Source: a virus (Duplodnaviria > Heunggongvirae > Uroviricota > Caudoviricetes). From it: DNA of 64,000 bases. A program made the translations under genes and the position numbers. Below the pieces are notes generated by a model, which made no database searches, was not told the DNA's origin, and saw only the letters and a program-made list of their open reading frames with translations. Each line of letters starts with the position of its first letter. Within the stretch, counting starts at the first letter, position 1. The DNA lies in IMG/VR virus record IMGVR_UViG_3300033143_002040, positions 35,712-99,711 of that record; one strand, given 5' to 3'. Shown here in pieces: positions 2,909 through 25,737 of this stretch.

Positions 2909-3658
2909 ATGTTATCGGAAGTATTAACAGACATCCTCGCACAAACACATGGGCTAGGATTTATTGAAATGATGAAAATAGATAGTAGCGCAACTGAAAC
3001 AACGATTGCAGCTATCAACGACGACAAATCAGTTGTCGTATTTGGAAAACTTAATAGTCCGTTGACTGAACTAGAAGGTGTAGTAGGATTATCACGAATG
3101 GCAGTACTACAGGGTTATTTGAAATATCCACATTTTGTTGGGGATGATGCAACTATTGAAATCAAAACTACGCAGCGAGACGGTAGTGAAATCCCAACAG
3201 AGATTTATTTTTCTGCTAATGGTGGGCACGAATCTAGTTACCGCTTTATGCATAAAGACGTAGTGGAAGAGCAAGTCAAAGTACCACCTTTCAGGGGTGC
3301 AACTTGGGACGTTGTTATTACTGGTACAGATGAGATTATGAAGGATCTGAGCTACTTCAATGGAGTGTTAGGCGCGTTTGAGCCAACCTTTACTGTAAAG
3401 ACAGACGTTAATAATGATCTTAATTTCTATATTGGTAGCGGCCCGACTGACCGAGCTACGGTACCAGTTGCAAAAGCTGTGAACGGCACACTCACAGGCA
3501 ATCTTACATGGCCGCTCGTTGAAACGCTTGCTATACTTAAGCTTGCGAGTAAGGCAGATGATTGTATAATCAGCTTTAGTAACAAGGGTGTGATGAAGAT
3601 TGAAATGGAAACAGGCCTCGGCAGTTATGAATACTTACTCCCAGCAAGATCAATGTAA
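2909..3658 (+). CDS. hypothetical protein (249 aa), immediately downstream of DNA polymerase; function not recognisable (sliding-clamp guess not supportable)
   Basis: ORF with strong RBS and own promoter; no diagnostic motif seen. Confidence 0.6.
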   Translation: MLSEVLTDILAQTHGLGFIEMMKIDSSATETTIAAINDDKSVVVFGKLNSPLTELEGVVGLSRMAVLQGYLKYPHFVGDDATIEIKTTQRDGSEIPTEIYFSANGGHESSYRFMHKDVVEEQVKVPPFRGATWDVVITGTDEIMKDLSYFNGVLGAFEPTFTVKTDVNNDLNFYIGSGPTDRATVPVAKAVNGTLTGNLTWPLVETLAILKLASKADDCIISFSNKGVMKIEMETGLGSYEYLLPARSM

Positions 3659-4088
3659 AGTTGAATCATTTAGCGGAATATTTCGCTTCTTGTCTAACTT
3701 CCACCGCGCGCCTATGATGTATCATGGCATTGCATATCCAACATCAGAACATGCATATCAAGCCGCGAAGACATTAAACGAAAATTCACGAATGAATATT
3801 TCGATACTAGGCACGCCATATGAAGCAAAAAAGTACGGCAAAACAGTTAAGCGACGGTCTGATTGGGATGAAGTAAAATTAGAAGTCATGACGGAAATTG
3901 TACGTGCAAAATTTATACAAAATCCGTCACTAAGAGAAAAATTACTTGCAACGGATGATGCTATCCTAGAAGAAGGAAATACTTGGGGTGACACATACTG
4001 GGGCACATGTAAAGGCGAAGGCGAGAATCATTTAGGAAAAGTCTTAATGGATTTGCGTAATAACCTAAATACTAATACAGAGGAATAA
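3627..4088 (+). CDS. NADAR (YbiA/DUF1768) family N-glycosidase / ADP-ribosyl-processing enzyme
   Basis: VESFSGIFRFLSNFHRAP...YPTSEHAYQAAK aligns with E. coli YbiA INFYSTSDDYGDFSNFAAWP...WPTSEHYFQAQK; start chosen at internal Met (MNTYSQ), ORF track start 3600. Confidence 0.8.
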   Translation: MNTYSQQDQCKVESFSGIFRFLSNFHRAPMMYHGIAYPTSEHAYQAAKTLNENSRMNISILGTPYEAKKYGKTVKRRSDWDEVKLEVMTEIVRAKFIQNPSLREKLLATDDAILEEGNTWGDTYWGTCKGEGENHLGKVLMDLRNNLNTNTEE

Positions 4089-4697: not shown

Positions 4698-6227
4698 ATG
4701 AGAGATTTAACAGTAGGTAAAAAAGACTATGCATTATTCTTGCCAGCGATAAGTGGCTTCTACACAGAAGTACTTGGTCGCTGTAGGAATTTTCCAGATT
4801 ACCTGCCGCCTGATAGGACACCTAAGGGTTTTGAAAATGGTATGGAAGGTCTTGATTTCTTCAACGAGGATAAGGGATATTTCTATTACGATGTGGGTTT
4901 GTATTCAGCAGGACACGCATACTTAGACGAAGAACGTACTAATAAATTTGAGTGGATGATTCAAGAGCGCGATAAGAAAAAGACTACGCTCTTGGGTGAT
5001 TCAGGCGGGTATCAAATCGGCAAAGGTGTTATTAAATTTGATTGGGAACACTTCTATGAAAAGAAAGGTGATCCAGGTTACATCGGCAAAGCAGATAAAA
5101 TGCGAGCAGATATTCTTCATTGGCTTGAATACACGGCTGATTGGTCACTAACACTTGACGTACCTACATGGGCGTACATGGAAGAAACAGCAAGAGAACG
5201 CACAGGGTTGCGCACATTCCAAGAATGCTTAGATGCAACATTATTTAATCTCGATTATTTTGTTGAGCATAGAGAAAACAAAACAAAGTTCCTCAACGTA
5301 CTTCAAGGTACAACGTGGGATGATGCAAACACTTGGTACGACGCCGTAAAGGACTATCCGTTCGAAGGTTGGGCAATGGGCGGCAATAATATGCGCGACA
5401 TAGAAATCGCCCTTCGGCGTCTTATTATTATGCGGGACGAAGGGTACTTAGAAGGTAAAGATTGGATTCACTTCTTAGGAACTTCTAAACTTGAGTGGGC
5501 AGTAATGCTAACTGGTGTACAACGTGAATTGCGTAAGCACGTAAATCCGAATGTAACAGTCAGTTATGATGCAGCAAGTCCATTCATCGCAGCAGCAAAC
5601 GGCCGCATGTATACATATAATTCTTTGTTATGCGACAAACTTAGCTATGTGATGGATAGGGGATTTGACGGTAGACAATTAGCTCATAGTGATATTCCGT
5701 TTCCGTTTGAAAGTGAAATCGGACGGCGGTTAACAGTCGGTGATGTTTGTCACTACGGTAAAGGTGATCTTAACAAGCTTGGCAAGGTCACTAACTCAGC
5801 TTGGGATTCGTTTACTTATACAATTCTAGGAGCGCACAATTGCTACGCGCACATACGCGCAGTACAACGCATCAATCACCTTAGTGACTTAGAGAGTATG
5901 CGATTCGATCCAGATTGGAGAACATGGACAAAGACAAAGCGCAAATCTAAAGCAGCAGAAATGTCTTTTTGGGTTCCGCGAAATTTGTTGTACTTCAATA
6001 ATTTTATCAAAGAACTATTTGTATCGGACAATCCTATGCAGATGCTAGATGATGCTTCACCATTACTTCAAGAAATGACTAATCAGAAATATATCGACGG
6101 CAACACAGCATTATTTCAAGATTTGTTCGGAGATGAGAATGATAATGAAGTTATAACTGGCGAAGATTATGGACGCGAAGATGATGTACTTGATGCACTA
6201 GAAAGAAAACTGAGGAATGAAAACTAA
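4698..6227 (+). CDS. tRNA-guanine-transglycosylase-superfamily protein, DpdA-like putative DNA 7-deazaguanine transglycosylase
   Basis: LLGDSGGYQIGKG matches the TGT catalytic LTDSGGYQ motif; C-terminal Cys/His cluster (CHYGKG...AHNCYAH) in the position of the TGT Zn site; QueD/QueE homologs nearby. Confidence 0.6.
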   Translation: MRDLTVGKKDYALFLPAISGFYTEVLGRCRNFPDYLPPDRTPKGFENGMEGLDFFNEDKGYFYYDVGLYSAGHAYLDEERTNKFEWMIQERDKKKTTLLGDSGGYQIGKGVIKFDWEHFYEKKGDPGYIGKADKMRADILHWLEYTADWSLTLDVPTWAYMEETARERTGLRTFQECLDATLFNLDYFVEHRENKTKFLNVLQGTTWDDANTWYDAVKDYPFEGWAMGGNNMRDIEIALRRLIIMRDEGYLEGKDWIHFLGTSKLEWAVMLTGVQRELRKHVNPNVTVSYDAASPFIAAANGRMYTYNSLLCDKLSYVMDRGFDGRQLAHSDIPFPFESEIGRRLTVGDVCHYGKGDLNKLGKVTNSAWDSFTYTILGAHNCYAHIRAVQRINHLSDLESMRFDPDWRTWTKTKRKSKAAEMSFWVPRNLLYFNNFIKELFVSDNPMQMLDDASPLLQEMTNQKYIDGNTALFQDLFGDENDNEVITGEDYGREDDVLDALERKLRNEN

Positions 6228-6564
6228 TAATTCAAAAATACTTATTCCTATTGTTAGGAAACTCTATCCAAACATGATAGCTGATATGATTACGAAAGTT
6301 CAGCCGATGCAAGGCAAAACGGGTTCAATCTTTAGCCTGAATATAGAAGATTCTATAATTAATCCTTGGTCAGAATGGCGTAGAACAACAAGTTTATGGC
6401 CGCGTGAATCAATTACAGGAAAATGGATTGTTGGCCGCATCAACAAACGTGGACGGAATGTTTGGGGTGGCGGTGGTATGCAAGGTAAGGCTACTCGCAA
6501 ACGACAATTCGCAACAAACAAAGAATTATTTGCATTAAAATTAAAAGGTAATAGCGATGAGTGA
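6217..6564 (+). CDS. small protein, KEYFKKKLxG-family (subfamily with PR(K/E)SITGK box)
   Basis: WPRESITGKWIVGRINKRG ... NKELFALKLKGNSDE. Confidence 0.55.
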   Translation: MKTNNSKILIPIVRKLYPNMIADMITKVQPMQGKTGSIFSLNIEDSIINPWSEWRRTTSLWPRESITGKWIVGRINKRGRNVWGGGGMQGKATRKRQFATNKELFALKLKGNSDE

Positions 6565-6955
6565 TTTATATATTGTTGATTCTGGAACTGTTACTACTGG
6601 TAACGTATTAACATATACCACCACTAATACGGGTTCTATATGGGTCGCGCATGAACCATTAGCTCCGCCACCGCGGGTAAGCCCAATTCCGCCGCCCGTG
6701 CTTGATCCGTTTATCAAGAGGGAGTTTTGGGATGATGTAGAATGGAAAGAATATACTTCTTACATGCCGCGGAAATCAATTACAGGTAAGATTATTATAG
6801 GAAAAATGCATAAGCGTAGTAAAAAAGATATTATAAAAGGTGGAACTTATCATACATCAAATGTTACAAATACAATACTTGATAGAGCAATTCCTCATAC
6901 ACAATATGCTAAAACAAAAGAATTGTTTGAAGAAAAACTAAGAGGCAAAGCATGA
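6557..6955 (+). CDS. small protein, KEYFKKKLxG-family (PRKSITGK box)
   Basis: MPRKSITGKIIIGKMHKRS ... TKELFEEKLRGKA; paralog of 6217..6564. Confidence 0.55.
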   Translation: MSDLYIVDSGTVTTGNVLTYTTTNTGSIWVAHEPLAPPPRVSPIPPPVLDPFIKREFWDDVEWKEYTSYMPRKSITGKIIIGKMHKRSKKDIIKGGTYHTSNVTNTILDRAIPHTQYAKTKELFEEKLRGKA

Positions 6956-7257
6956 AACTCGGAGAATACAGAGTTGTGTATGGTGCATATTATAACTATC
7001 GTGCTGTACATGATACATCACATTGCGCAGACATTTGGACTGTAGAGGAACGCTGTCAAGTAACATTATTCGGATTATGTAAGCTGTGGGATTATTGGAG
7101 TGAGCATACAGAACCTAACTATGATGCTCAATACACTATACAATTTAAGAGTCCAGAGCAAGCATTTGAATATGTAGAACGATTATTAAACGGCAATCCT
7201 CGAAATACAACAATAAAGACAGTAGTAACAGAAATAAACCATGAACGAATCAATTAA
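6952..7257 (+). CDS. hypothetical protein (101 aa)
   Basis: tiled ORF, ATGA overlap with upstream. Confidence 0.45.
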   Translation: MKLGEYRVVYGAYYNYRAVHDTSHCADIWTVEERCQVTLFGLCKLWDYWSEHTEPNYDAQYTIQFKSPEQAFEYVERLLNGNPRNTTIKTVVTEINHERIN

Positions 7258-7768
7258 AAGAAATTACACAAACAGGAATGGTGAAGTTGCCGATGATGCA
7301 ATATACTTCACTGGCATCGAAGTCGAGAATACTCCACAACACGGTAAGAACACCCTATTCGTAGTGGGTATACAACCAGCTGAACAGATTGCTCGATTCG
7401 CAGCAGAACGAAAAATTAAACACATTTATCTTGGTGCTAACAAAAGTTTTCACATGATAGATGATTGGGAGCCCGTTATAGACGAGCTATTAGAACTAAA
7501 CTTTTGGGTTACATTAGATTTTCCAGTTCGGTGTCATAACTTTATTATGCGCACAATGGGGAATCATATGCGTAAGAGCAAATTTATTCCTATGATTTCT
7601 GTCGAGATACCGAACGTAGACATATATAATTACAACACCACAATCAAGATTGATGATATAGACATGGATCACTCAAACCCAGGTGTGTGGTGTCATAGTT
7701 TGCATAGCCTTTTGAATCGTGATAACTTTACAAGCTGGGATGAATACCAGGATGACGAAGCATTATGA
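7241..7768 (+). CDS. hypothetical protein (175 aa)
   Basis: tiled ORF. Confidence 0.5.
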   Translation: MNESIKRNYTNRNGEVADDAIYFTGIEVENTPQHGKNTLFVVGIQPAEQIARFAAERKIKHIYLGANKSFHMIDDWEPVIDELLELNFWVTLDFPVRCHNFIMRTMGNHMRKSKFIPMISVEIPNVDIYNYNTTIKIDDIDMDHSNPGVWCHSLHSLLNRDNFTSWDEYQDDEAL

Positions 7769-8130
7769 GCGGTTGCGGACGGCCTTTAGCAAAAGATGAG
7801 TGGTGGACTTTCTGCGGAGAAACAGATATGGGACAAACTGCTCCTGCTCTTTGTACAGAGTGCGGAGGTGAGTTTAAGCTTAAAGAGGTAGCTAACATGA
7901 TGGACGAACGAGCAGTAGAAGCAGGTAGACGAGCAGCAGAAACAATCGCAACAGATAAAGACCCAGGTGAAAAACACTTTATTTATCGCCTTGTAAAAAG
8001 TGCGTTTCGCATTCTAGGTTGTGTATTATTTATTATACTCGGCTTTGTTACTAATGAGATGTTATTGTGCTACGGAGCAGGCATGTTTTTTGCAGCAGAA
8101 GTTTTAGGCATCGCAGAGGAACTAACATGA
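7765..8130 (+). CDS. hypothetical Zn-ribbon protein with C-terminal transmembrane segment
   Basis: CGETDMG...CTECGG Cys pairs; hydrophobic C-term FRILGCVLFIILGFV. Confidence 0.45.
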   Translation: MSGCGRPLAKDEWWTFCGETDMGQTAPALCTECGGEFKLKEVANMMDERAVEAGRRAAETIATDKDPGEKHFIYRLVKSAFRILGCVLFIILGFVTNEMLLCYGAGMFFAAEVLGIAEELT

Positions 8131-8330
8131 TACATGCAAGTAACGAAAATTGGTTTGCATATCTAGAACGTGTTAGAAGGCATTTGCCAGAAGGATTTGA
8201 AGACGATTGTGTTGACGACGGAATTGCAGATAAGACTGGTGCATATATTTTTGTATCATTTATGAGAGGTGGTGCAGCACAAAGGTGTGCCGAAGACCTT
8301 GTACAAAAACTAGGAGTTGACGATGGCTAA
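8127..8330 (+). CDS. hypothetical protein (67 aa; internal start MIHASN chosen)
   Basis: ORF 8067..8330 overlaps upstream gene; internal Met abuts its stop. Confidence 0.35.
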   Translation: MIHASNENWFAYLERVRRHLPEGFEDDCVDDGIADKTGAYIFVSFMRGGAAQRCAEDLVQKLGVDDG

Positions 8331-8502
8331 TTGTACATCATGCGGAAGTGAAATTCCAGACGATCAAGGTAACTCTTGTTCAATGTGTTACGGCGACCCC
8401 GATCATGGTCACGATGGTTACTATCAAGCAATGCTAGATCAGCAATACGAAGAAGAAATGGCAAAGCAGTATCGTGAAGAATATAGAGAACGAGAAGAAT
8501 AA
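8317..8502 (+). CDS. hypothetical Zn-ribbon mini-protein
   Basis: CTSCGS...CSMCYGD. Confidence 0.4.
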   Translation: MTMANCTSCGSEIPDDQGNSCSMCYGDPDHGHDGYYQAMLDQQYEEEMAKQYREEYREREE

Positions 8503-8780
8503 TGGTAATAGAGATTGACGGCATTATCCATAACGGCAACCTTAAAACTGAATGGACTAAGTGGAGGGAAACATTTTGTTTCTTGCCACATAAAGACATT
8601 ACAGGAATATTTATCATGGGACTTATATGGTGTCGTGTGCAGGAATCTCGTATATATAAATATGAAAATGACATAGGTTATTACATATCGTCTAATTTAG
8701 GATATGTAGAGTACGCTAGAACGAAGAAAGATATTTTCTTACGTAGTCTCGCAGGAAAAGAATATAGGATAAAAATATGA
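8502..8780 (+). CDS. small protein, KEYFKKKLxG-family variant (HKDITG box)
   Basis: WTKWRETFCFLPHKDITGIFIMG ... TKKDIFLRSLAGKE. Confidence 0.5.
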   Translation: MVIEIDGIIHNGNLKTEWTKWRETFCFLPHKDITGIFIMGLIWCRVQESRIYKYENDIGYYISSNLGYVEYARTKKDIFLRSLAGKEYRIKI

Positions 8781-9310
8781 TTTATGAAGTTAAATATTGG
8801 CCTAACCCTTGTTTGAAGGAGGCCGCAAAAGATGTTACTGATTTGAGTCTTGAGGTATGCAATGACATAATTGCTAATTTATTTGAGACTATGTATACAG
8901 GACACGGCATGGGTCTTGCAGCAACACAATGTAACATACCGCTGTGTATTATGGTAATAGACACAACACAAATAGGCGGAAAGCTTAAGCAAGCATTTAT
9001 AAATCCTGTTATCAAAGAACTAACAGAAAAGAAAATCATTTCAGAAGAAGGCTGCTTAAGCTTTCCTGGAATTTTTGTGAAGATAGAACGCTGTGACGGC
9101 GTAGTAGTGGAACACACGACCTTGACAGGAGAGACAGAACAAGCTATACTAAATGGTGTAGATGCTATTTGCTTTCAGCATGAATACGACCACTTAAATG
9201 GTATTGTATTTTACGATCATTTGAAAGCAGCAAAGAGACAAATGATGGAAACGAAAGTACGTAAGAATGTGAAAAAGATAATAAGACTGGAAAACAAACA
9301 TGCGCATTAA
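8777..9310 (+). CDS. def: peptide deformylase
   Basis: GxGxAAxQ (GMGLAATQ), EGCLSFPG, HEYDHLNG motifs. Confidence 0.9.
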   Translation: MIYEVKYWPNPCLKEAAKDVTDLSLEVCNDIIANLFETMYTGHGMGLAATQCNIPLCIMVIDTTQIGGKLKQAFINPVIKELTEKKIISEEGCLSFPGIFVKIERCDGVVVEHTTLTGETEQAILNGVDAICFQHEYDHLNGIVFYDHLKAAKRQMMETKVRKNVKKIIRLENKHAH

Positions 9311-9788
9311 CATTAACAGACCACCTAAGCACGTTCGAAAAGAACAAGAGCGGATGGCTAGACAAGAGTGGCATAAGAAGTTTGCGTGGAAGGCTACTAA
9401 GGTAGATCATACTGATGTAGGACATAGAGTTGTCTGGTTTGAAAACTACTGGTGCAAGGAGAAAATTGGGCCGACACAAGGTGATAGCCCAGGAGACGGA
9501 CGATACTTCGAAAAATATTCTGAGAAAGAATACTTCAAGAAAAAACTAGATGGTGATTTTGATAAGCATGAAACAATGGTAGATGAGGCTACTGCAAGTT
9601 CAATAGCTAGTCAGATTCGCAATCAAATGAATAAACAGTATCCTAGCGGAGGCTTGCATAAAAAGGACGGGCCAAATTCAGGTGTTAACTTCAAGAAATA
9701 TGTAATTGGCAGAGCAGATCAAGATATTGAAGTTGAGTCAATTTTTCTCGGAGACGAAGAAGAAGATGGATGGGAGGAAGACAAATGA
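9300..9788 (+). CDS. KEYFKKKLxG-family protein (tandem paralog 1)
   Basis: ...VWFENYW...EKEYFKKKLDGDFDKHE. Confidence 0.55.
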   Translation: MRININRPPKHVRKEQERMARQEWHKKFAWKATKVDHTDVGHRVVWFENYWCKEKIGPTQGDSPGDGRYFEKYSEKEYFKKKLDGDFDKHETMVDEATASSIASQIRNQMNKQYPSGGLHKKDGPNSGVNFKKYVIGRADQDIEVESIFLGDEEEDGWEEDK

Positions 9789-10171
9789 AATTTAAGATAG
9801 ACAAACCGCCTGCGCATGTTACAAGACGAAAAAGAATTAATGCTAAACGAGAATGGCACACTAAGTTTGCATGGCTACCAACCGTAGTAGATGAAACCGA
9901 TATTGAATATAAGCGGGTATGGTTCGAGAAATATTGGCGGCAAGGTCACTGGGGTCCGTCTCGGATGGGAGATGCAAACCCTATGATATTTACAAAATAC
10001 TCCAATAAAGAATACTTTAAGAAAAAGCTTAATGGAGATTTTGATAAGGAAGAGATTGAAGCTGATACTAATGTTGGCTCAACAAGTAGCAGCCGTGCAT
10101 ACGTAAATAATCAAATACTAAAGAAAAGTGGGCCCCACATTCATAATCCATACAAAAGGAATACGGTATGA
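9770..10171 (+). CDS. KEYFKKKLxG-family protein (tandem paralog 2)
   Basis: ...VWFEKYW...NKEYFKKKLNGDFDKEE; collinear with 9300..9788 over its whole length. Confidence 0.55.
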   Translation: MGGRQMKFKIDKPPAHVTRRKRINAKREWHTKFAWLPTVVDETDIEYKRVWFEKYWRQGHWGPSRMGDANPMIFTKYSNKEYFKKKLNGDFDKEEIEADTNVGSTSSSRAYVNNQILKKSGPHIHNPYKRNTV

Positions 10172-10578
10172 AAGAACAAAGATTTATTTTCGTAACGTTT
10201 CAGAAAGAAGGCATACATTCTTATCCTGACGCCCCTGAGGGTGTAGAGTTTCTACGCCACCCTCATCGACACATATTTCATTTTCGTGTAGACATTGAGG
10301 TGTGGAATGATGATCGAGAGATTGAATTTATTTTATTCAAACGTGAACTTGAAGATCAATACAAGAAAGAAGTAGTTGGTCTCTCATCAGTACTTCAATT
10401 AAACAGCAAGAGTTGTGAAATGCTTGCAGATGATCTAGCAGAATACATACAAGATGCATACCCTGGCCGTGATCTTAAGATCGAAGTAAGCGAGGATGGC
10501 GAGAATGGTGCAGTCGGTTATTATCCTGCAGACCGTGAACAAGTACCAATTCTTTATCAACAAAGAGATATGTTCTAA
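10168..10578 (+). CDS. QueD-like / 6-pyruvoyl-tetrahydropterin synthase (T-fold) family protein
   Basis: HPHRHIFHFRVDIEV resembles the QueD HGHSFxVxLEI region; size 136 aa; the canonical CxxxHGH Cys is absent. Confidence 0.45.
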   Translation: MKEQRFIFVTFQKEGIHSYPDAPEGVEFLRHPHRHIFHFRVDIEVWNDDREIEFILFKRELEDQYKKEVVGLSSVLQLNSKSCEMLADDLAEYIQDAYPGRDLKIEVSEDGENGAVGYYPADREQVPILYQQRDMF

Positions 10579-10997
10579 TGACAAGTAAAGATGCTCCTGC
10601 TATGCATTCACTAGACTTAGAAGAAAAGATTACACGTATGCTTTCTGACAAGATGAACGAAGAAACTGACAGAGCTATAATGCAAACTTATGGCCAACCT
10701 AACAACGAATTTATATTACCTGAATCAGTAGAGTATGATAGATTGCGGGAAACGGAACAGAGAAAATTTAAGGACGCAATTATGCAAGATTGGCAGCAAC
10801 TAAGAAAACGAGATCCTGACGAGCAATTCCGCAGACAGACAAACAAAGATATTGCAGAGATTAAAGACTCAATACGCAAGATCGGAATTCTGTTTGGTGA
10901 AGACGCACCGAGCGAAGAACAAATGAAAAAACACAAGATGCTTAAAGATGCGTATAACAAGTACAAAATGATTGAGGCATTAGTATTAGAAAAATAA
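10578..10997 (+). CDS. hypothetical coiled-coil protein (C-terminal YNKYKMIEAL motif shared with 12584 and 12822 ORFs)
   Basis: tiled ORF. Confidence 0.45.
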   Translation: MTSKDAPAMHSLDLEEKITRMLSDKMNEETDRAIMQTYGQPNNEFILPESVEYDRLRETEQRKFKDAIMQDWQQLRKRDPDEQFRRQTNKDIAEIKDSIRKIGILFGEDAPSEEQMKKHKMLKDAYNKYKMIEALVLEK

Positions 10998-10998
10998 A

Positions 10999-11205
10999 AT
11001 GACAAACGGTTTCTTCATAGACGAATTACATAGGGTACATAACGTAAATGTAGTCGGTGCAAACCCTAACACTGACGCAGGATGGTACGACATTGATCGC
11101 GGTTCATATATAGAAACTGTCGTAACTCACAAAGACAATTTATTCTTAAATGAAGAAGTAGCCAAAAAAGAATCATTTTTACGACTACTGAAGGACAAAA
11201 GATAA
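10999..11205 (+). CDS. hypothetical protein (68 aa)
   Basis: tiled ORF. Confidence 0.4.
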   Translation: MTNGFFIDELHRVHNVNVVGANPNTDAGWYDIDRGSYIETVVTHKDNLFLNEEVAKKESFLRLLKDKR

Positions 11206-11208
11206 TAG

Positions 11209-11463
11209 ATGGCATTCGAAAATATAAAACAACAGAAAGTTTGGTGTATTCATTTTTGGGGCATGACACTAGAGGAAGGCCTGTTAATGGGCAAAGAAGG
11301 TGATGGATTTTATGTGCGTTTAGATGGTGCTGCAATAAATGACATCGAAATAATTAATGCTGATAATGTATTCTTTGAGAAAGAGGCAGGAGAAAGAGCA
11401 TTATTTAAAGCTAACTTAGCTGGTGATAAAAGGCCAGCAAATAAAGATATTAGAGACTTATAA
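11209..11463 (+). CDS. hypothetical protein (84 aa)
   Basis: tiled ORF. Confidence 0.4.
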   Translation: MAFENIKQQKVWCIHFWGMTLEEGLLMGKEGDGFYVRLDGAAINDIEIINADNVFFEKEAGERALFKANLAGDKRPANKDIRDL

Positions 11464-12584
11464 TGAAAATTTATATCATAGACCTTGAATCCGTTCCGAC
11501 ACGCTATACGTGTCAATGGAAAGAGCATATTCCAACTCTGCTGAAAAATGCAGCGACCTTGAGGAATAGGGCTGACGTAGAGATAGTAAATATCTCTGGA
11601 GGAGAAGCAGAGTTGAAAGCGACGCCTGGAGCTTTCTTAAACTTTGCGCAGACAAATGTGTATAAGAACAACCAACTAACACAAGTGTCTGAATTATTTT
11701 CTGAGGGCGAGGTCAATCCAGGCGACCAATTTATATTCACAGACGCATGGCATCCTGGGATTATGCAACTCAAATATATGAGTGAGTTGCTACAGATTCC
11801 CGTTGTGATACACGCACTGTGGCATGCAGGAAGCTATGACCCGCAAGACTTCTTAGGCAGACTTATCAAAGACAAACGCTGGACAAACAACTTTGAGAAA
11901 GCAGTCTTTCATGCAGTAGATTACAATTGGTTTGCAACTGACTTTCACATTGATATGTTCCGACGTAATTGTTTCCGCGAACCCTATCAAGGTTACTTCG
12001 CAGAACTTGATCCGCACGAAATCGAAACAAAGTATTGTCGCACAGGTTGGCCGATGGAATACATGGCTGACACGTTAGCTCCATATGCTAATCTAGAAAA
12101 GCGTGACTTGATTCTGTTCCCGCATCGTGTAGCACCAGAGAAGCAAGTAAGGATTTTCAACGAATTAGCAGAAGCACTTCCGCAGTATGAATGGGTTGTG
12201 TGTCAAGACAAAGAACTAACTAAGCATGAGTTTCATACATTGCTTGGTGAAGCTAAGATGGTCTTTAGCGCAAACTTGCAAGAAACGCTAGGCATTTCTA
12301 CTTGTATTGAGGGACCGCTAGTAGGTGCGCTACCGTGTGCTCCGAATCGCTTAAGCTACACAGAAATCTTTGCAGGACACGAAGAATTTTTATATCCAGA
12401 TGAATGGACTAGGAGTTACGATAAGTTCGACGCAAACAGAAAGAACTTAGTTGATCGCATAGAAGATATGATGCAGAACTATGATGCAGCAAAGGCACAT
12501 TTGTATTCTTACAACCAAAACCAGATTCCGAAGTTCTTTGGGTTCGATGCAGCGATAGAAGTTATCTTCAAGGAAGATGACTAA
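11463..12584 (+). CDS. hypothetical protein (373 aa); weak resemblance to GT-B glycosyltransferases such as T4 beta-glucosyltransferase (MKIxII ... IFTD)
   Basis: N-term MKIYIIDL and QFIFTDAWHP versus T4 beta-gt MKIAIINM and YYLFTDIRLP; resemblance only. Confidence 0.5.
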   Translation: MKIYIIDLESVPTRYTCQWKEHIPTLLKNAATLRNRADVEIVNISGGEAELKATPGAFLNFAQTNVYKNNQLTQVSELFSEGEVNPGDQFIFTDAWHPGIMQLKYMSELLQIPVVIHALWHAGSYDPQDFLGRLIKDKRWTNNFEKAVFHAVDYNWFATDFHIDMFRRNCFREPYQGYFAELDPHEIETKYCRTGWPMEYMADTLAPYANLEKRDLILFPHRVAPEKQVRIFNELAEALPQYEWVVCQDKELTKHEFHTLLGEAKMVFSANLQETLGISTCIEGPLVGALPCAPNRLSYTEIFAGHEEFLYPDEWTRSYDKFDANRKNLVDRIEDMMQNYDAAKAHLYSYNQNQIPKFFGFDAAIEVIFKEDD

Positions 12585-12841
12585 TGAGTTACGGTGGAGG
12601 TAGTCCTGGCGGACGCAAAAACATTACTGTCGCTGAATGGCAGGAGATCAGCATATCTCCAGAACTCATGGAAAGGATCGACAGGATGGAACGCAATCTA
12701 GATGTTGTAATGGAACGTCTAACTGTGCTTGATAAACCTAATCCTGAAAAGTTAGCGAAGTTCAAACAACTAAAAGTAGTGTATGAAAAGTACAAATTTC
12801 TAGAGAAACTTTGCGGGGAAGATGATGATGGATGTAGATGA
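12584..12841 (+). CDS. small coiled-coil protein (paralog A)
   Basis: ...FKQLKVVYEKYKFLEKL... Confidence 0.45.
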   Translation: MSYGGGSPGGRKNITVAEWQEISISPELMERIDRMERNLDVVMERLTVLDKPNPEKLAKFKQLKVVYEKYKFLEKLCGEDDDGCR

Positions 12842-13109
12842 CCTCATAGAAGAAATCGGAAATGTAAACGATGAGGTGATGAATCTTGAGCGACGTATTG
12901 ATACACTAGATCGTACATTCATTAAATGTACAAACGATATATTAGAAGCACTAAAGTTGCAAACTGATATGATTGCAGAACTTGGCGAGTTGGTAGCACT
13001 CAGCAAATCGCCAACAGAAGCCGACTTAAAGAAATATGCTGCGATACGTGAAGCGTTTGATCGGTACGATTTTGTGCGCAAACTTACATTAGGAAAGGAC
13101 ACTGAATAA
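12822..13109 (+). CDS. small coiled-coil protein (paralog B)
   Basis: ...LKKYAAIREAFDRYDFVRKL... Confidence 0.45.
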   Translation: MMMDVDDLIEEIGNVNDEVMNLERRIDTLDRTFIKCTNDILEALKLQTDMIAELGELVALSKSPTEADLKKYAAIREAFDRYDFVRKLTLGKDTE

Positions 13110-13447
13110 TGAAACTAGGTATAGAACCAAAAACGTGCCCCACTCATGTAATTAAGATTTACATTGCTGGTGACAGAAATCTTGCTAGACAAGTACTCCA
13201 AGAGTATGTTATGCGTGGTGCGTGTGTTAGCATTTCAGAAGAAGAATATATCTACACAATGGGTAATGAAACAGGAATCGTAGTAAACTTAATCAATTAC
13301 CCGCGCTTTCCTAAGACAGAAGAAATATTACTAGAGCAAGCATTAGAATTAGCAAACGAGCTACTTGTAAAGCTTTTTCAAGGATCTTGTACTGTAGTAG
13401 ATTACAATGGAGAATCATTCTTCATTAGTAGAAGAAAAGACGATTAA
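13109..13447 (+). CDS. hypothetical protein (112 aa)
   Basis: tiled ORF. Confidence 0.45.
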   Translation: MKLGIEPKTCPTHVIKIYIAGDRNLARQVLQEYVMRGACVSISEEEYIYTMGNETGIVVNLINYPRFPKTEEILLEQALELANELLVKLFQGSCTVVDYNGESFFISRRKDD

Positions 13448-13467
13448 AAATCTATAGGAGAAATAAA

Positions 13468-13800
13468 ATGGAAGAATTTGTAGCAGGGTTGACAATCGGA
13501 GGATTGTTAATAGAGAACTTAATTATTTTTGTGGCGGGCGCAATAGCATTGCTCGGATACAAGATTAAACGTATGCTAGGTAGCAACGGCTGGGATAAGA
13601 GCAACATGACAAATGCTTTGCGCTTAGAGAGCCACGAAACAATGCACCCAGAAGATTTTGGACGCATGTATTATTTGACACATGCGCAAATGGATTTGCT
13701 TCGTAACAACGGACACGATCCAGACATGCCTTTCGGATATATCAGTTTAGACGAACTCTCAGAAGTTGTAAAGACTCGACCAACAGAAGATCATGTTTAA
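13468..13800 (+). CDS. hypothetical protein with N-terminal transmembrane helix
   Basis: LTIGGLLIENLIIFVAGAIALLGY; RBS AGGAGA. Confidence 0.45.
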   Translation: MEEFVAGLTIGGLLIENLIIFVAGAIALLGYKIKRMLGSNGWDKSNMTNALRLESHETMHPEDFGRMYYLTHAQMDLLRNNGHDPDMPFGYISLDELSEVVKTRPTEDHV

Positions 13801-14218
13801 TAGAATAAGAAATTATTTTCTGAATCGTCGTGTTAAGAAAAAGACGAATTCTACTATCAGGTTATTACAAACAGCGGCGCCGCCATCACCTACTGTTATG
13901 ATTTTTGATGATGCGCAATCAAATACGTTAACGTTTACAAATAACAATGGCGTAAAGATTTTCTCAATTGAACCAAATGGAGAAGCAGTTTGGCACAAGG
14001 AAGATGTATATAACGAAGCTGCCTCTATATTTCTCCAGTGCGTTACTATGAACATTGAGGATAAAGCAGGTATTGCGCAAAATCGCATGGAATGGGAGGA
14101 ACGCATAACTGTGAAACTCGCTAGACAAGCGGAAATAGCTCCACTTGGGCCTGAGGAGTTGACAGATGTTATTCGAAAGTGTATAATGTATGATAAGCTG
14201 AAGGGTACAAAAAACTAA
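13793..14218 (+). CDS. hypothetical protein (141 aa)
   Basis: tiled ORF. Confidence 0.45.
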   Translation: MFNRIRNYFLNRRVKKKTNSTIRLLQTAAPPSPTVMIFDDAQSNTLTFTNNNGVKIFSIEPNGEAVWHKEDVYNEAASIFLQCVTMNIEDKAGIAQNRMEWEERITVKLARQAEIAPLGPEELTDVIRKCIMYDKLKGTKN

Positions 14219-14219
14219 A

Positions 14220-14432
14220 ATGGCAGTAAAATACTATAGAATAATTGCAATTGATTATGTCGAAGACTGTAAGTGTGACTCAGCCGAAGAAAAGAATGCT
14301 TGGATGGTTTTAGAAGATAAAGTAAACGCATTCCTTGTATCTGAAATAGAGCAAGATCGAATATGGAATCTCAGTGGAGATATTATTTCTGCTAACTATG
14401 GACTTGCACAAGTACTAGTTACGGAAAAGTAG
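14220..14432 (+). CDS. hypothetical protein (70 aa)
   Basis: tiled ORF. Confidence 0.4.
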   Translation: MAVKYYRIIAIDYVEDCKCDSAEEKNAWMVLEDKVNAFLVSEIEQDRIWNLSGDIISANYGLAQVLVTEK

Positions 14433-14436
14433 CATA

Positions 14437-15351
14437 ATGAGCAATAAATATAAATACAGCGAAATATTTACTTCGATTCAAGGCGAAGGAACCTACTGTG
14501 GAACACCGACAGTTTGGCTTCGTTGGTTCTTATGTAATTTACAATGCAGCGGCTTTGGTCAGAAAATACCAGAAGAACGCAGTACACATATTTTACCATA
14601 TAAAGAATTCGACGTTAGCACTGTAAAGCGTATCGAAGATTTACCTGTTTGGGATTATGGTTGTGATTCTAGCTATAGCTGGGCGCGGAAATTCAAAGAT
14701 TTATGTCCTGCGCATACAGCAAGACAACTTGCACAGAAACTAGAAAACGAATTACGCAAGTTTGACAACAATCCTGACGGAAAATTCTTGCTAAATAATG
14801 AGCGCGAGCTAAAAGATGTACATTTTTGTATGACAGGTGGTGAGCCGATGCTTGAACGTACACAAGTAGGGCAAGTCGAGTTACTGCATGCGTTAGCAGA
14901 TAATGTGAACTTACCAAGATTTATTACAGTAGAGACAAACGGAACACAGACGCTAACAGATGAATTAGCAAAAACAATCTCGTCATACGTAGCAAGCGGC
15001 GGAGAATGGTTTTGGTCGTGTTCGCCTAAGCTATTATATACAAGTGGTGAGAAGCCAACTAAGGCAATTAAGCCTGCTGTAGTCAAAACGTATCAAGACG
15101 TTAGTGCGTTTGGACAACTAAAGTTTGTTGTAAGCAACAGACCAGAAGCATGGGATGAACTTGAAGAACGAGTTGAAGATTTTAGGAATGCAGGGATTGA
15201 GTGGCCTGTTTGGATAATGCCCGTTGGCGCGACAGTCGAATCACAACAAGACGAGGATGCTATTGCAATAATTGAGGAAACTATTCGTAGAGGTTATCAC
15301 GTTGCTACGAGAGTACATTGTTACATTTGGGGCAATCAGATAGGAACATAA
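14437..15351 (+). CDS. queE: QueE-like 7-carboxy-7-deazaguanine synthase (radical SAM)
   Basis: FTSIQGEGTYCGTPTVWLRWFLCNLQC matches the QueE signature; FCMTGGEPM SAM-binding motif; Cys spacing is atypical (CNLQC ... distant C). Confidence 0.65.
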   Translation: MSNKYKYSEIFTSIQGEGTYCGTPTVWLRWFLCNLQCSGFGQKIPEERSTHILPYKEFDVSTVKRIEDLPVWDYGCDSSYSWARKFKDLCPAHTARQLAQKLENELRKFDNNPDGKFLLNNERELKDVHFCMTGGEPMLERTQVGQVELLHALADNVNLPRFITVETNGTQTLTDELAKTISSYVASGGEWFWSCSPKLLYTSGEKPTKAIKPAVVKTYQDVSAFGQLKFVVSNRPEAWDELEERVEDFRNAGIEWPVWIMPVGATVESQQDEDAIAIIEETIRRGYHVATRVHCYIWGNQIGT

Positions 15352-15823: not shown

Positions 15824-16150
15824 TTGGTTCGCGTTATTAATGGAACAACAAGAACAGAAAGAAGGAACGCCTCGCTGGTGGAAGTATGCGCGTATGGTTC
15901 GAAAAATAGAGGACGCATTAGGGGCAACAAAGCGGCCATTGTTAAAGGTAGTAAAGACAAAATGAATGACGATGATTGGGAAAATAAAACTATCCTTCAT
16001 GGCGGCGGTGAGTGGCTTAAAGAGAAAGATGGCCTGTACACTAAGTATATGAATATTCATTACAAGGATGGCAGAGTAGATAGACACATAATGGAGTCTG
16101 GAGTAACAGAAAAAGAATACTTCAAGAAAAAATTAGATGGATCCGACTGA
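15824..16150 (+). CDS. KEYFKKKLxG-family protein
   Basis: ...GVTEKEYFKKKLDGSD; true start may be a downstream Met. Confidence 0.5.
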   Translation: MVRVINGTTRTERRNASLVEVCAYGSKNRGRIRGNKAAIVKGSKDKMNDDDWENKTILHGGGEWLKEKDGLYTKYMNIHYKDGRVDRHIMESGVTEKEYFKKKLDGSD

Positions 16151-20253: not shown

Positions 20254-20895
20254 ATGAATTACGAATTTTACTATAACAGGCTGAATCAACGATCGGAAAA
20301 TCGGTTGCTAGAAGGCTATACTGAGAAACATCATATTATCCCCCGCTGCATGGGTGGCACGGATGATCCTGAGAACATTGCTATATTGACCGCTAGAGAA
20401 CATCATATAGCACACCAGTTATTGGTTAAGATGTATCCTGGCCATCACGGATTGATCTCCGCATTAAACGTAATGAGAACTGCTAGCAGTAAAAAGTATA
20501 GCTGGATTAAACGATTATGCCACGAACAATTATCTAAGAACTACAATGATCGTTATGGGGTTGATCGAGCGAAAAAGATAAGGAATAAACAATCTGTTTC
20601 GAAGATGGGCAATACCAACGGGCGATTCGGAAAAGGATGGAAAGCTACACCCGAACAAAAAGCAAGGATGTCCGAGGCACATAAAGGACAACTCGCATGG
20701 AATAAGGGCAAGAAAACTGGACCACAGACCCACGAACGCATTTCTCATCGTGCTCGTAAATGTCAAAAATCTTGTACAGTCGATGGCATAAAATATTCTT
20801 CGCGCAATGAAGCTGCTGACAAATTAAATATTCATATCACCACTATATATAAATGGCTTGCAAGCGGGCGAGCAAAGGAACACACAAATGGCTAG
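20254..20895 (+). CDS. HNH homing endonuclease (free-standing, copy 1)
   Basis: HHIIPRCMGGTDDPENIAILTAREHHIAH; paralog of 45414..46106. Confidence 0.8.
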   Translation: MNYEFYYNRLNQRSENRLLEGYTEKHHIIPRCMGGTDDPENIAILTAREHHIAHQLLVKMYPGHHGLISALNVMRTASSKKYSWIKRLCHEQLSKNYNDRYGVDRAKKIRNKQSVSKMGNTNGRFGKGWKATPEQKARMSEAHKGQLAWNKGKKTGPQTHERISHRARKCQKSCTVDGIKYSSRNEAADKLNIHITTIYKWLASGRAKEHTNG

Positions 20896-22238: not shown

Positions 22239-23351
22239 ATGGCTAAGACAGACACGAATCAAAAAAGCATTCCAGTTCGACCTTCTGAACTTGTAGAAGT
22301 AGTCGAGCATGTAATGTCAGTAGGCCGTCCTTGCATGATTTGGGGACCGCCAGGAATCGGCAAATCAGACATTATCGCACAGATCGGAGCGAGAGAGAAT
22401 CGTCCCGTGATCGACCTGCGTTTGCTCTTGATGGAGCCGACTGACCTTAAAGGCATCCCTTTCTACGATCCGAAGACGGAAACGATGAAGTGGGGCAAGC
22501 CAGGTGAGCTTCCAGGTGAGGCCGATACAGAACTGCATAACGCTATTCTGTTCCTTGACGAGATTAACGCTGCACCGCAGTCGGTTCAGGCCGCTGCATA
22601 TCAGTTGATTCTGAATCGCAGAATTGGCGAGTACGAGCTTCCTGAATGTGTAAGTATCGTTGCTGCTGGTAACAGAGAGACTGATCGCGCAGTAACTTTT
22701 CGCATGCCGTCAGCACTTGCTAACAGGTTCATGCACTTTGAATTGATCGTATCTTTCGAAGATTGGCAGGACTGGGCAATTCGACACGGCGTACATCCTG
22801 ACGTAGTTGGTTTCTTGACTGCGCATCCGAACTACTTGTTCCAGTTTGATCCGAAGAGTGGCGACAAGGCTTTTGCTACTCCGCGTTCGTGGACGTTCGT
22901 TGGAGAGGCTCTGACTGACAAGCTTTCTGACAAGCTGAACGAAGTCATGGTCGCTGGCACAGTTGGTCTTGGACTCGCTACTGAATTCATGCAGAGCAGG
23001 CGCTTGAAAGGCAAGCTTCCGAATCCTCGCGACATCGTGTTGGGCAAGGTTACTAAGCTGAAGGAAGACAAAGCGATTGACGTTTCTGCTAAGTACTCGC
23101 TGGTTATCGGCATGTGCTACGCAATGTCTGAAATCAAGCAAGAGTTTGAAATGGACAAGTCTAAGGGTGACAAGGACTGGAACAAGGTCACTGACAACTT
23201 TTTGAAGTTTATGATGATCCCTGAACACTTCAAGAAGGAAATGGTCATCATGGCTGCTGTTACAGCATTCCGTCGCTACGACTTGGACTTCGATTCTGAG
23301 ACTCCCACTTTCAACAAATTCTTCAAAGAGTACCAAGAGTGGATTGTCTAA
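22239..23351 (+). CDS. MoxR/CobS-like AAA+ ATPase
   Basis: Walker A GPPGIGKS; Walker B ILFLDEINAAP; 370 aa typical of CobS/MoxR. Confidence 0.85.
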   Translation: MAKTDTNQKSIPVRPSELVEVVEHVMSVGRPCMIWGPPGIGKSDIIAQIGARENRPVIDLRLLLMEPTDLKGIPFYDPKTETMKWGKPGELPGEADTELHNAILFLDEINAAPQSVQAAAYQLILNRRIGEYELPECVSIVAAGNRETDRAVTFRMPSALANRFMHFELIVSFEDWQDWAIRHGVHPDVVGFLTAHPNYLFQFDPKSGDKAFATPRSWTFVGEALTDKLSDKLNEVMVAGTVGLGLATEFMQSRRLKGKLPNPRDIVLGKVTKLKEDKAIDVSAKYSLVIGMCYAMSEIKQEFEMDKSKGDKDWNKVTDNFLKFMMIPEHFKKEMVIMAAVTAFRRYDLDFDSETPTFNKFFKEYQEWIV

Positions 23352-23377
23352 ATGGTTAACTGGTGCAACGTGACTTG

Positions 23378-23412
23378 CGCTATGATTGGCCGCCCCGAGA
23401 CTTTCTTTGGGC
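23378..23412 (+). terminator. rho-independent terminator
   Basis: GCCGCCC...GGGCGGTC stem followed by TTTTTT. Confidence 0.7.
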
Positions 23413-23536
23413 GGTCTTTTTTATGAGATTCAAACAGTTACAGGCGCTCGTAAGTCATTGATTCTATTAGAGCAGAAATACTCCAAAAATAGTTATAAGT
23501 TATTGATAACTATAGTAATAGAGATGCATAAAGTGG

Positions 23537-23565
23537 TTGACGCAAGGGGTGTTTTACCGTATAAT
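23537..23565 (+). promoter_or_regulatory. sigma70-like promoter TTGACG-17-TATAAT with upstream inverted repeat
   Basis: -35 TTGACG 23537-23542; -10 TATAAT 23560-23565. Confidence 0.65.
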
Positions 23566-23594
23566 ATGTATATAAATTGATAGGAACTAATCAA

Positions 23595-25088
23595 ATGTCA
23601 CAGAAGTTTTCCCCAGAAGATAAATTAGTCAAAGCACGTATTGATTTTATTTACAACGATTGCGTGTTTCTCGGCAACTTAGCACTTCGACTTGAATTGG
23701 TCGATGCTACCGCATGGTGTCCTACTGCGGCAACTGACTTCAAGCATTTGTACTACAATCGAGATTTTATTGATCGTTGTTCACTTGAAGAAACCAAATT
23801 TGTGATTGCACACGAGGTTATGCATTGTGTGTACGATCACTTTTCTCGTCGTGAGGAACGTGATCCGCGTCTGTACAATTGTGCTGGCGACTACGTAATT
23901 AACTTGGAACTGAAGGATCTTGGAATCGGTTCTTTTCCTTCCAGTAATACCATGATGGATCCGAAGTACGAAGAATTCATCAAAGAGAATTTCCCTGAGC
24001 GTTACCGAAAGTATAAGAAAGAATTTGCTGGTGGTGAGCCAGGTGTGCTTTGCGAAGAAAAGTATCGCGATATGTCTTCTGAGGAAGTCTACAACATCCT
24101 AAAGAAAGAACAGGATGAGCGGGACAAGCAGAATGGTAAAGGCGAGAGCGACGGCCAGTGTGGCGAATGTGGCGGTACTGGACAGGCCCCAGGCGATCAA
24201 GGTGAAGGCGATCAAGATGGTGAAGGCGAAGGTGGCAGCGGCCAATGTGGCGGAAGCACCCCAGGTGATTGCCCGTCTTGTGGTGGTTCTGGCAAGAGTA
24301 AAGGCGGCCAGAACGGACCAATTTCACACGATATGCATATGGATCCTGAGGCTGGTGATGCTGATGGTGACGAAAATGATGGCTCGCAAGGTCCGATCAA
24401 GATTGACCAAGAAGAAATTGATCGGATGGACAGCGATATGCGTAAAGCGATCATGGACGCAGCAGCAGTTGCATCCGAAGCACGTGGTGGCGCAGGTAAC
24501 ATCCCAGGTGGTGTTAAGCGTCTGATTGATGATTGGACAGATTCTACAGTTGACTGGCGCGAGTATTTGAATAACAGCATTCAGTCAACTTTGAAGTCAG
24601 ATTACACATGGCAGCGTCAGAGCAGGAAGTCTCGCTCTACGAATTACTACTTGCCTGCAATGGACAACGATATGATGGTTAGTGTCGATCTTGCGATTGA
24701 TACGTCAGGTTCAATGTCTGATGAAATGTTGAGAGACATTCTTGCAGAGGTTAAAGGTATCATGGAGCAGTTCGCAGACTTCAAGCTTCGTGTATGGTGC
24801 TTCGATACTGAAACGTATGAAGTTCACACGTACACACCTGACACGGTTGATGAGATTTATGACTTCGAGTTAGAAGGTGGCGGTGGTACGATGTTTGAGT
24901 GCAATTGGGAAATGATGCGTCAGGAAGAAATTGTTCCAGATCAGTTCATTCTCTGCACAGACGGTTACCCCTGCGGAACTTGGGGCGAAGAGGATTACTG
25001 CGATACAGTATTCTTGGTGCACGGTCGTAAGAGCATTGTTGCTCCCTTCGGTGTTACGGTACATCACGAAAACGCTACTGACGATTAA
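23595..25088 (+). CDS. VWA-domain protein with N-terminal HExxH zincin-like motif and Gly/Cys-rich acidic linker (CobT/MoxR-partner-like)
   Basis: IAHEVMHCVYDH; MIDAS DTSGSMSDEM; linker GECGGTGQAPGDQGEGDQDGEGEGGSGQCGGSTPGDCPSCGGSGKS. Confidence 0.7.
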   Translation: MSQKFSPEDKLVKARIDFIYNDCVFLGNLALRLELVDATAWCPTAATDFKHLYYNRDFIDRCSLEETKFVIAHEVMHCVYDHFSRREERDPRLYNCAGDYVINLELKDLGIGSFPSSNTMMDPKYEEFIKENFPERYRKYKKEFAGGEPGVLCEEKYRDMSSEEVYNILKKEQDERDKQNGKGESDGQCGECGGTGQAPGDQGEGDQDGEGEGGSGQCGGSTPGDCPSCGGSGKSKGGQNGPISHDMHMDPEAGDADGDENDGSQGPIKIDQEEIDRMDSDMRKAIMDAAAVASEARGGAGNIPGGVKRLIDDWTDSTVDWREYLNNSIQSTLKSDYTWQRQSRKSRSTNYYLPAMDNDMMVSVDLAIDTSGSMSDEMLRDILAEVKGIMEQFADFKLRVWCFDTETYEVHTYTPDTVDEIYDFELEGGGGTMFECNWEMMRQEEIVPDQFILCTDGYPCGTWGEEDYCDTVFLVHGRKSIVAPFGVTVHHENATDD

Positions 25089-25727: not shown

Positions 25728-25737
25728 GAGAAGAAAG

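Follow-up and report, generated by a model that had tools for sequence, protein, structure and literature searches.

The stretch of DNA considered here ('the window') is 64 kb of an uncultured marine jumbo-type phage (IMG/VR record IMGVR_UViG_3300033143_002040), and its plus strand carries, downstream of the gene for a family-B DNA polymerase (PolB; 96–2855), a run of tightly packed genes which probably includes a 'DpdL-type' 7-deazaguanine DNA-modification module. That module would consist of a DpdA-like guanine transglycosylase, of DpdL, and of a QueE-like enzyme, along with a glycosyltransferase (GT) and a conserved protein that here is called c3. Modification of DNA with 7-deazaguanines is a major phage counter-defence, with eight such bases known, and a DpdL-type 7-deazaguanine module is itself a known kind of anti-restriction system. 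The module here possesses a very divergent DpdA branch and a variant QueE, along with a conserved GT and c3 which appear not to have been described for the 7-deazaguanine pathway.

The original prediction for this DNA had envisaged a 7-deazaguanine DNA-modification pathway lacking QueC, as based on DpdA-like, QueD-like, and QueE-like open reading frames (ORFs) found just downstream of the polymerase gene. Both that location and the overall idea hold up, and all three ORFs are indeed present on the plus strand (4698–6227, 10168–10578, and 14437–15351). Conserved homologues of each number in the thousands in metagenomes, with no Pfam assignment for any of them, and as a single gene order furthermore is seen across 80 viral contigs, these are real genes rather than chance reading frames. 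The observation is confirmed, that is, while its interpretation is partly supported. Two module genes had been overlooked, those of the GT4-like glycosyltransferase (11463–12584) and of the 175-aa c3 (7241–7768).

The first ORF (4698–6227, +) encodes a 509-aa protein which has no Pfam, PHROG, or NCBIfam match at E≤0.01, nor any PDB sequence match by phmmer or profile search. As sequence libraries are blind to this protein and also to the 373-aa GT and the 175-aa c3, fold prediction is needed. An AlphaFold2 (AF2) model of the 509-aa protein, built on 33 homologues, has a predicted local distance difference test (pLDDT) score of 87. Compared against the PDB using Foldseek, this model matches the tRNA-guanine transglycosylase (TGT) of Z. 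mobilis (E 5e-8), human QTRT1, and DpdA 7ui4, the latter a DNA preQ0 insertase (1.8e-5). These are its only matches at E<1e-3, with the rest being generic TIM barrels at E>1e-3. Against BFVD, i.e., predicted viral structures, there are 18 matches at E≤1e-3, including the Motura 'tRNA guanine transglycosylase' (4e-11), nt-1 DpdA2 (1e-8), and phiST DpdA3 (4.6e-4). All of those that are identifiable by name or size are TGT or DpdA proteins of phages or archaeal viruses; 10 of the 18 are nameless. The expectation of a TGT/DpdA-fold enzyme is thus borne out by both structure collections.

The motif upon which that expectation had been based, LxDSGGYQ, is present as LLGDSGGYQ at residues 98–106 of the 509. 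Among 105 full-length family representatives, D101, S102, G104, Q106, D154, P156, H258, and D291 are invariant or nearly so (D101, S102, G104, and Q106 in 102–104 representatives, D154 in 104, and D291 in all 105), with Q203 found in 87. The catalytic residues align with the same motifs of DpdA2. A hidden Markov model (HMM) of the family, that is, aligns DSGGxQ, LD.P, LQG, HxLG, and SxDS with the DpdA of Acidovorax phage ACP17 (33 bits) and with the DpdA2 of Vibrio phage VH7D (20 bits), and hhalign gives 58% probability against ACP17 DpdA. By tblastn at 1e-5, no DpdA2 phage was matched using the 509-aa protein. Membership in DpdA1 or DpdA3 was rejected, with hhalign probabilities of 0.2% for DpdA1 of phage 9g and 0.7% for DpdA3 of phage phiST, and HMM scores of less than 3 bits. 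A zinc site was rejected as well. The Cys/His cluster which the original prediction had seen does not survive family comparison, as C351 is retained by only about half of representatives and C382 by almost none, and there is no CxCxxC...H.

Because of the fold matches, the invariant catalytic residues, and the profile links, the 509-aa protein is, so far as a modelled structure can indicate, a divergent DpdA-like enzyme of TGT fold, with an intact active site, forming a deep branch nearest DpdA2 and lacking the zinc subdomain. That branch is large, with a whole-library HMM search yielding 1,233 clusters at 50% identity, and with more than 4,400 metagenomic homologues, all labelled 'hypothetical'. 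That the enzyme exchanges guanine in DNA I infer from context, i.e., from its replication-gene neighbourhood, its relatedness to DpdA2, and the restriction resistance of Pseudomonas jumbo phage PA5oct, which carries a homologue.

The second ORF (10168–10578, +; 136 aa) is where the original prediction needs to be revised, as what had been read as QueD is DpdL, that is, a QueD/PTPS paralogue and proposed decarboxylase of 7-carboxy-7-deazaguanine (CDG). In DpdL the QueD signature CxxxHGH is changed to LxxxHRHxF, and DpdL is found in phages possessing DpdA, FolE, QueD, as well as QueE, yet lacking QueC (Hutinet et al., NAR 2023, PMC10516641). The window's protein reads L29-R-H-P-H33-R34-H35-I36-F37, which is the DpdL signature, with L29, H33, R34, H35, and F37 invariant across 33 homologues. 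It matches phiST DpdL (CGPG_00067) by hhalign with 99.1% probability (E 9e-19), and by tblastn is 51% identical to ACP17 DpdL (1e-26) and 34% identical to that of phiST (2e-9). A QueD-like H...HxH pattern is present, with zinc-binding His residues retained. QueD was nonetheless rejected as an identity for this ORF, given Leu in place of the catalytic Cys, no PF01242 match, and an hhalign comparison with 9g QueD that gave nothing significant; QueD lacking its Cys is inactive (PMC10516641).

It has been proposed that DpdL decarboxylates CDG to 7-deazaguanine, and the DNA of phiST, a phage with DpdL and without QueC, is 100% substituted with 2'-deoxy-7-deazaguanine (dDG) (PMC10516641). With the ORF being DpdL rather than QueD, the predicted product therefore shifts away from CDG or preQ0 in DNA (dCDG or dPreQ0), as originally suggested, and towards dDG or a derivative. 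Judging from the gene sequences, the product most likely would be 2'-deoxy-7-deazaguanine or else some further, possibly glycosylated, derivative of it, rather than dCDG or dPreQ0.

The third ORF (14437–15351, +; 304 aa) had been called a QueE with atypical Cys spacing, and this call stands. It encodes a QueE-like radical-SAM enzyme of the 7-carboxy-7-deazaguanine synthase type, reading SIQGEG...CNLQC...GCDS (distant)...TGGEP and thus displaying the arrangement CX3CX38C. The family phrog_2076 ('QueE-like') covers the full 304 aa at 1.2e-52, and a match to the PDB QueE 4njg (8e-4) spans the QGEG and GGEP motifs, with 6nhl aligned also. Five NCBIfam QueE models match this ORF, at its N-terminus only (35 residues) and far below cut-offs (best 37.6 bits versus 200–300). 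Within an alignment of 33 homologues, C33, C37, and C76 are 100% conserved, and they align with the CX3CX2C of 9g and ACP17 QueE. QueE proteins of the marine and PA5oct type possess an insertion of 30–38 residues between the second and third of these Cys, that is, inside the radical-SAM motif. As the three Cys are invariant and the insertion is conserved in this type, the atypical arrangement is, on alignment evidence, real and a conserved subfamily trait. The protein is 34% identical to PA5oct EST35_0322, which is annotated as a CDG synthase. A perfect sigma-70 consensus (TTGACA-17-TATAAT) occurs at 14159–14187 (+), 250 nt upstream of the QueE start and within the ORF at 13793–14218; promoter and terminator scans of the region returned counts not above those of shuffled controls.

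The GT (11463–12584, +; 373 aa) was assigned to no family by Pfam, PHROGs, NCBIfam, or PDB phmmer and profile searches of its sequence. Its AF2 model (pLDDT 86) has the two-Rossmann-domain GT-B fold, and matches in the PDB, using Foldseek, glycogen synthase, GlgM, BshA, PimA, and tetrahydrobiopterin glucosyltransferase (E 2e-8 to 1e-5). There are 87 PDB matches at E≤1e-3, of which the best 50 all are of GT-B fold, nearly all being glycosyltransferases and mostly GT4. The motifs HR-x4-K (R222, K227) and E274...E283 are invariant, with a Glu spacing of EX7E in the family and of EX8E in the window's copy. Homologues include ACP17 ASD50404 (hhalign 100%) and PA5oct EST35_0317 (44%). Of 49 loci, 48 have the gene downstream of DpdL, the gap having a median of 280 nt, and it is next to or near DpdL as well in Phosso, in Xanthomonas X1 and BUDD, and in Burkholderia BCSR5. 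The only hint as to donor sugar and acceptor is found in relatives, where nucleoside-diphosphate-sugar (NDP-sugar) enzymes adjoin the GT (an epimerase and a UDP-Glc/GDP-Man dehydrogenase, each in about 10 of the relatives). A literature search found no paper connecting a glycosyltransferase with DpdA or DpdL.

c3 (7241–7768, +; 175 aa) is co-conserved with the module and is without assigned function, having no match in Pfam, PHROG, NCBIfam, or PDB sequence searches. It lies between the transglycosylase gene and DpdL in 71 of 80 viral loci, is directly upstream of DpdA (ASD50402) in ACP17, and in PA5oct is found about 28 kb from the module. Neither c3 nor the GT was found in the fetched cluster regions of 9g, phiST, and VH7D.

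Those 80 viral loci are relatives from IMG/VR (labels L005–L084) that were recovered using the transglycosylase as query, with about 20 kb inspected per relative, of genomes of 200 kb or more. The order that they display is PolB - p249 - transglycosylase - c3 - DpdL - GT - FolE - QueE - p196 - RNase H, with the transglycosylase as the most conserved cluster member. Of the loci, 37 extend for 9 kb or more downstream, and of these DpdL is present in 37, the GT in 36, FolE in 32, QueE in 30, QueD in 1, and QueC in none. The sole relative with a canonical QueD beside QueE (L009:11700–12236) has a frameshift which splits the half bearing CxxxH(G)H from the C-terminal half. A scan of viral contigs with this QueD, which detects close relatives only, returned none of the 8 largest transglycosylase contigs as compared by eye, with only the contig of its origin recurring. 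Extra genes occur inside of the cluster of relatives. In 35 loci, and in PA5oct as EST35_0321, there is one for a phosphoribosyltransferase, in 18 loci one for a HIT-family protein, in about 10 one for an NAD-dependent epimerase, and in 10 one for a UDP-Glc/GDP-Man dehydrogenase, with examples of such genes at L080:9926–10462, L023:16618–17028, L051:14468–15463, and L043:12158–12964. These point to nucleotide-sugar supply and perhaps to guanine salvage or base activation. The window's own cluster has none of the four.

The window also is sparing in pathway genes. A Pfam scan of positions 1–37,700, covering plus-strand ORFs of at least 80 aa plus a dihydrofolate reductase ORF, found no FolE (GTP cyclohydrolase I), PTPS, QueC, or QueF, and phage FolE, QueD, and Gat-QueC queries gave no tblastn match at E<0.1 across the whole 64 kb. 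The earlier statement that QueC and QueF both are absent from the window is thereby upheld, for QueC by Pfam as well as tblastn and for QueF by Pfam only. The preQ0 pathway, FolE-QueD-QueE-QueC, accordingly is incomplete, with only QueE of the four encoded here.

Given the folds and motifs, the homologies, and the linkage described above, the following enzymatic steps may be envisaged. CPH4 would come from the host, or instead from a FolE and QueD encoded outside of the window. The phage QueE, going by its family membership, would turn this CPH4 into CDG. DpdL would then convert CDG, most likely through decarboxylation to 7-deazaguanine, by analogy with what has been proposed for phiST. Post-replication, the 509-aa enzyme would swap guanine in DNA for that base, as its fold, catalytic Asp, and context suggest. 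The GT and c3, being linked to the same module, probably would supply an extra step, in which a sugar is transferred, either to the base or else to a precursor. The outcome would be phage DNA which is shielded from restriction enzymes that read G.

A number of points weigh against this scheme. For O-glycosyl transfer of the sort typical of GT4 enzymes, 7-deazaguanine offers no hydroxyl, nor is one evident on CDG. The 509-aa protein matches no curated TGT or DpdA sequence model, it is missing the TGT zinc site, and its best matches among solved structures are tRNA enzymes. The window is without FolE and QueD, and 36 of 37 relatives have no canonical QueD within 10 kb, which makes the supply of CPH4 a weak point of the pathway. 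DpdL decarboxylase activity, moreover, remains only a proposal, even for the founding members. In E. coli, dpdA plus dpdL of ACP17 or of phiST gave no dDG, with the authors of that study suggesting that further enzymes are needed there for dDG (PMC10516641). Each of the rival explanations taken up below is nevertheless less well supported than is a DpdL-type module.

A bolder version of the DpdL-type module may be entertained, tentatively, which is that the module makes a ninth guanine replacement. This would be a sugar-bearing or GT-dependent 7-deazaguanine derivative, widespread in marine jumbo-type myoviruses and present also in PA5oct and ACP17. It is suggested by the pairing of DpdL with the GT, by c3, by the NDP-sugar enzymes of relatives, by the remodelled QueE loop, and by the lack of a canonical QueD. 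One route might begin with a hydroxylated pterin whose ring is contracted, with glycosylation coming next and then insertion by a new DpdA subfamily.

Alternatively, DpdL could replace QueD, converting H2NTP to CPH4, so that FolE, DpdL, and QueE together would make CDG. The result would be dCDG in the DNA, possibly esterified or glycosylated by the GT. Relatives do have FolE, DpdL, and QueE together, but of 37 loci only 1 carries a canonical QueD, that one copy frameshifted, and the zinc-binding His residues of DpdL are retained. VH7D DpdA2, for its part, is able to use CDG for insertion into DNA when the background is a queC mutant. But DpdL is without the Cys that is essential for QueD activity (PMC10516641), and as ACP17 and phiST each carry both QueD and DpdL, the two genes are not redundant in those phages. 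A separate PTPS gene has been reported for PA5oct, and the inspection of relatives covered only about 20 kb each, of genomes of 200 kb or more. Replacement of QueD by DpdL consequently seems unlikely.

That the pathway instead is canonical, i.e., FolE-QueD-QueE, with or without QueC, and DpdA, generating dCDG or, given a QueC elsewhere, dPreQ0, was the version originally proposed. It is consistent with the presence of a TGT-fold enzyme and a QueE, as well as with the rest of the genome being unseen. Its supposed QueD is DpdL, however, DpdL has been reported from phages without QueC (NAR 2023, PMC10516641), and none of the 80 related loci has a QueC, nor does the fetched ACP17 cluster region. 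A canonical pathway therefore is very improbable.

The TGT-fold enzyme, on the other hand, might act on host tRNA, inserting a deazaguanine base and thereby retuning translation. Whether the enzyme belongs with tRNA-specific TGTs or with DpdA clades had been flagged from the start, and the evidence divides: Among solved structures it is matched best by tRNA-guanine transglycosylases, both bacterial and human, whereas its closest viral relatives, by structural match and by profile, are the DNA-acting DpdA2 enzymes of phages. The zinc subdomain of tRNA TGTs also is missing, no tRNA genes were found in the window, the gene is located among replication genes, and it is the DNA of PA5oct itself which is restriction resistant at G-containing sites. 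A tRNA target hence is hard to credit. Equally hard to credit is a small-molecule pathway, not targeting DNA, in which the combined action of FolE, the GT4, and an enzyme resembling PTPS would give a glycosylated pterin or deazapurine, comparable to cyanobacterial biopterin glucoside, or a nucleotide via the phosphoribosyltransferase of relatives, as even though tetrahydrobiopterin glucosyltransferase (BGluT) is among the structural matches of the GT and the cluster of relatives holds FolE, phosphoribosyltransferase, and HIT protein, those GT matches are generic GT4 enzymes with BGluT only 13th, the most conserved cluster member is a transglycosylase whose catalytic Asp residues are intact, and the window itself is without FolE and phosphoribosyltransferase.

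With this module, a branch of DpdA-like enzymes comes into view that is very large and without annotation. The GT and c3 could explain why DpdA plus DpdL alone fail to yield dDG heterologously. And should it be true that the GT acts on the base, then this would be the first example, in DNA, of a purine replacement that is glycosylated.

Other genes of the window may be described more briefly. The polymerase is closest to those of Rak2-, Atu_ph07-, and Phosso-type jumbo phages (about 40% identity) and is intact, whereas in PA5oct the polymerase gene is split by a homing endonuclease; megablast found no nucleotide-level relatives of the window among cultured phages. Two paralogous genes of the window resemble HNH/NUMOD3-type homing endonucleases (20254–20895, +, and 45414–46106, -). 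Interspersed with the module are small ORFs. Those at 6217–6564 and 6557–6955 (+) are tandem paralogues, and over its N-terminal roughly 40 residues the first one matches the T4-type major capsid protein at the N-terminus of the latter (Pfam Gp23 4.6e-10; phrog_138 8e-7). By its sequence this stretch may serve a small packaged protein as its leader, either capsid-targeting or propeptide-like. The ORFs at 9300–9788 and 9770–10171 likewise are paralogues of each other. By eye, small ORFs at 6217–6955, 9300–10171, and 15824–16150 (+) have a similar C-terminal tail, approximately (K/E)E(Y/L)F(K/E)xKL(D/N/R)G. Between the transglycosylase and DpdL there also is a peptide deformylase (8777–9310, +; NCBIfam NF001159, 4e-38), an auxiliary metabolic gene that is shared by only 1 of the 80 related loci.

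The Pfam scan further identified a NADAR domain protein (3600–4088), an AAA_5 ATPase plus DUF2201/VWA pair (22239–25088), an RtcB RNA ligase (25720–26991), an SPFH/Band-7 protein (31257–32765), and the dihydrofolate reductase (37129–37674, -). On the minus strand, 46881–62807 is a single ORF of 5,308 aa, found among ORFs that by eye resemble tail-fibre proteins. A 323-aa ORF (40356–41327, -) displays a poly-Gly run followed by 'CFMYGTEF...' and, by eye only, has the look of Hint/intein-type autoprocessing.

Among known systems, that of phiST (DpdA3, DpdL, and FolE/QueD/QueE, producing dDG) shares with the window the DpdL signature LxxxHRHxF, a QueE, and the absence of QueC, and in both a TGT-fold enzyme is found beside replication genes. 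Unlike the window, phiST has FolE and QueD in its cluster and a canonical QueE. Its DpdA3, at 259 aa, has no profile similarity to the 509-aa protein and only a weak structural match (4.6e-4). There also is no GT or c3 in the 16-kb cluster region of phiST that was fetched, nor a tblastn homologue in any phiST record. ACP17 is closer in terms of gene content, with a cluster reading QueD - FolE - c3 - DpdA (424 aa) - GT - DpdL - QueE, i.e., with all five of the window's families adjacent. Among named proteins ACP17 DpdA comes closest to the 509-aa protein, but is itself a clear DpdA2 (34–36% identity to nt-1 and VH7D) to which the window's protein is only remotely related, and ACP17 QueE, unlike that of the window, has the canonical CX3CX2C.

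The DpdA2 of Vibrio phages VH7D and nt-1 has in common with the 509-aa protein its fold and five motifs, DSGGxQ, (F/L)D.(I)P, LQG, HxLG, and SYDS, though the profile score between VH7D DpdA2 and the window's family is only 20 bits. Unlike the window, these phages possess both QueC and QueF, and the base that they insert is preQ0 or preQ1. VH7D DpdA2 has been validated experimentally as a DNA 7-deazaguanine transglycosylase (PMC10516641, Table 2). With Z. mobilis TGT the window's protein shares, positionally, the Asp of DSGGFQ as well as the nucleophile Asp, but at a TM-score of only 0.42–0.54 and 15% identity, and with neither a zinc site nor a PF01702 match.

The GT may be compared with the T4 system, in which alpha- and beta-glucosyltransferases act on 5-hydroxymethylcytosine. 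There too a GT-B glycosyltransferase gene is found beside base-modification genes, but the top 50 structural matches of the window's GT do not include the T4 glucosyltransferases. The GT4-family enzymes QTMAN and GTDC1 act on queuosine in tRNA, and QTMAN thereby sets a precedent for the action of a GT4 enzyme upon a 7-deazaguanine base that is part of a nucleic acid.

A further known system is that of PA5oct (Wroclawvirus), whose genes EST35_0311–0325 display close synteny with the window, including PolB, p249, p196, and RNase H. Identities are 39% for the transglycosylase, 44% for the GT, 46% for DpdL, and 34% for QueE, which has the same insertion. PA5oct, unlike the window, has phosphoribosyltransferase-like and epimerase-like genes in its cluster, and the two regions of its genome that were fetched lack FolE, QueD, and QueC. 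PA5oct DNA is reported to be resistant to restriction enzymes at G-containing sites, which is experimental evidence for a modified G. END nucleases, which are able to sense modified bases, furthermore restrict this phage, one of them being specific to G-modified phages (END-nuclease preprint). That preprint cites a QueE and a PTPS for PA5oct while naming no transglycosylase; the 540-aa PA5oct homologue of the 509-aa protein is annotated 'hypothetical' and there is not called DpdA. The module described here thus supplies the missing transglycosylase candidate for the modified G of PA5oct, and as PA5oct and ACP17 both are culturable, the prediction is directly testable.

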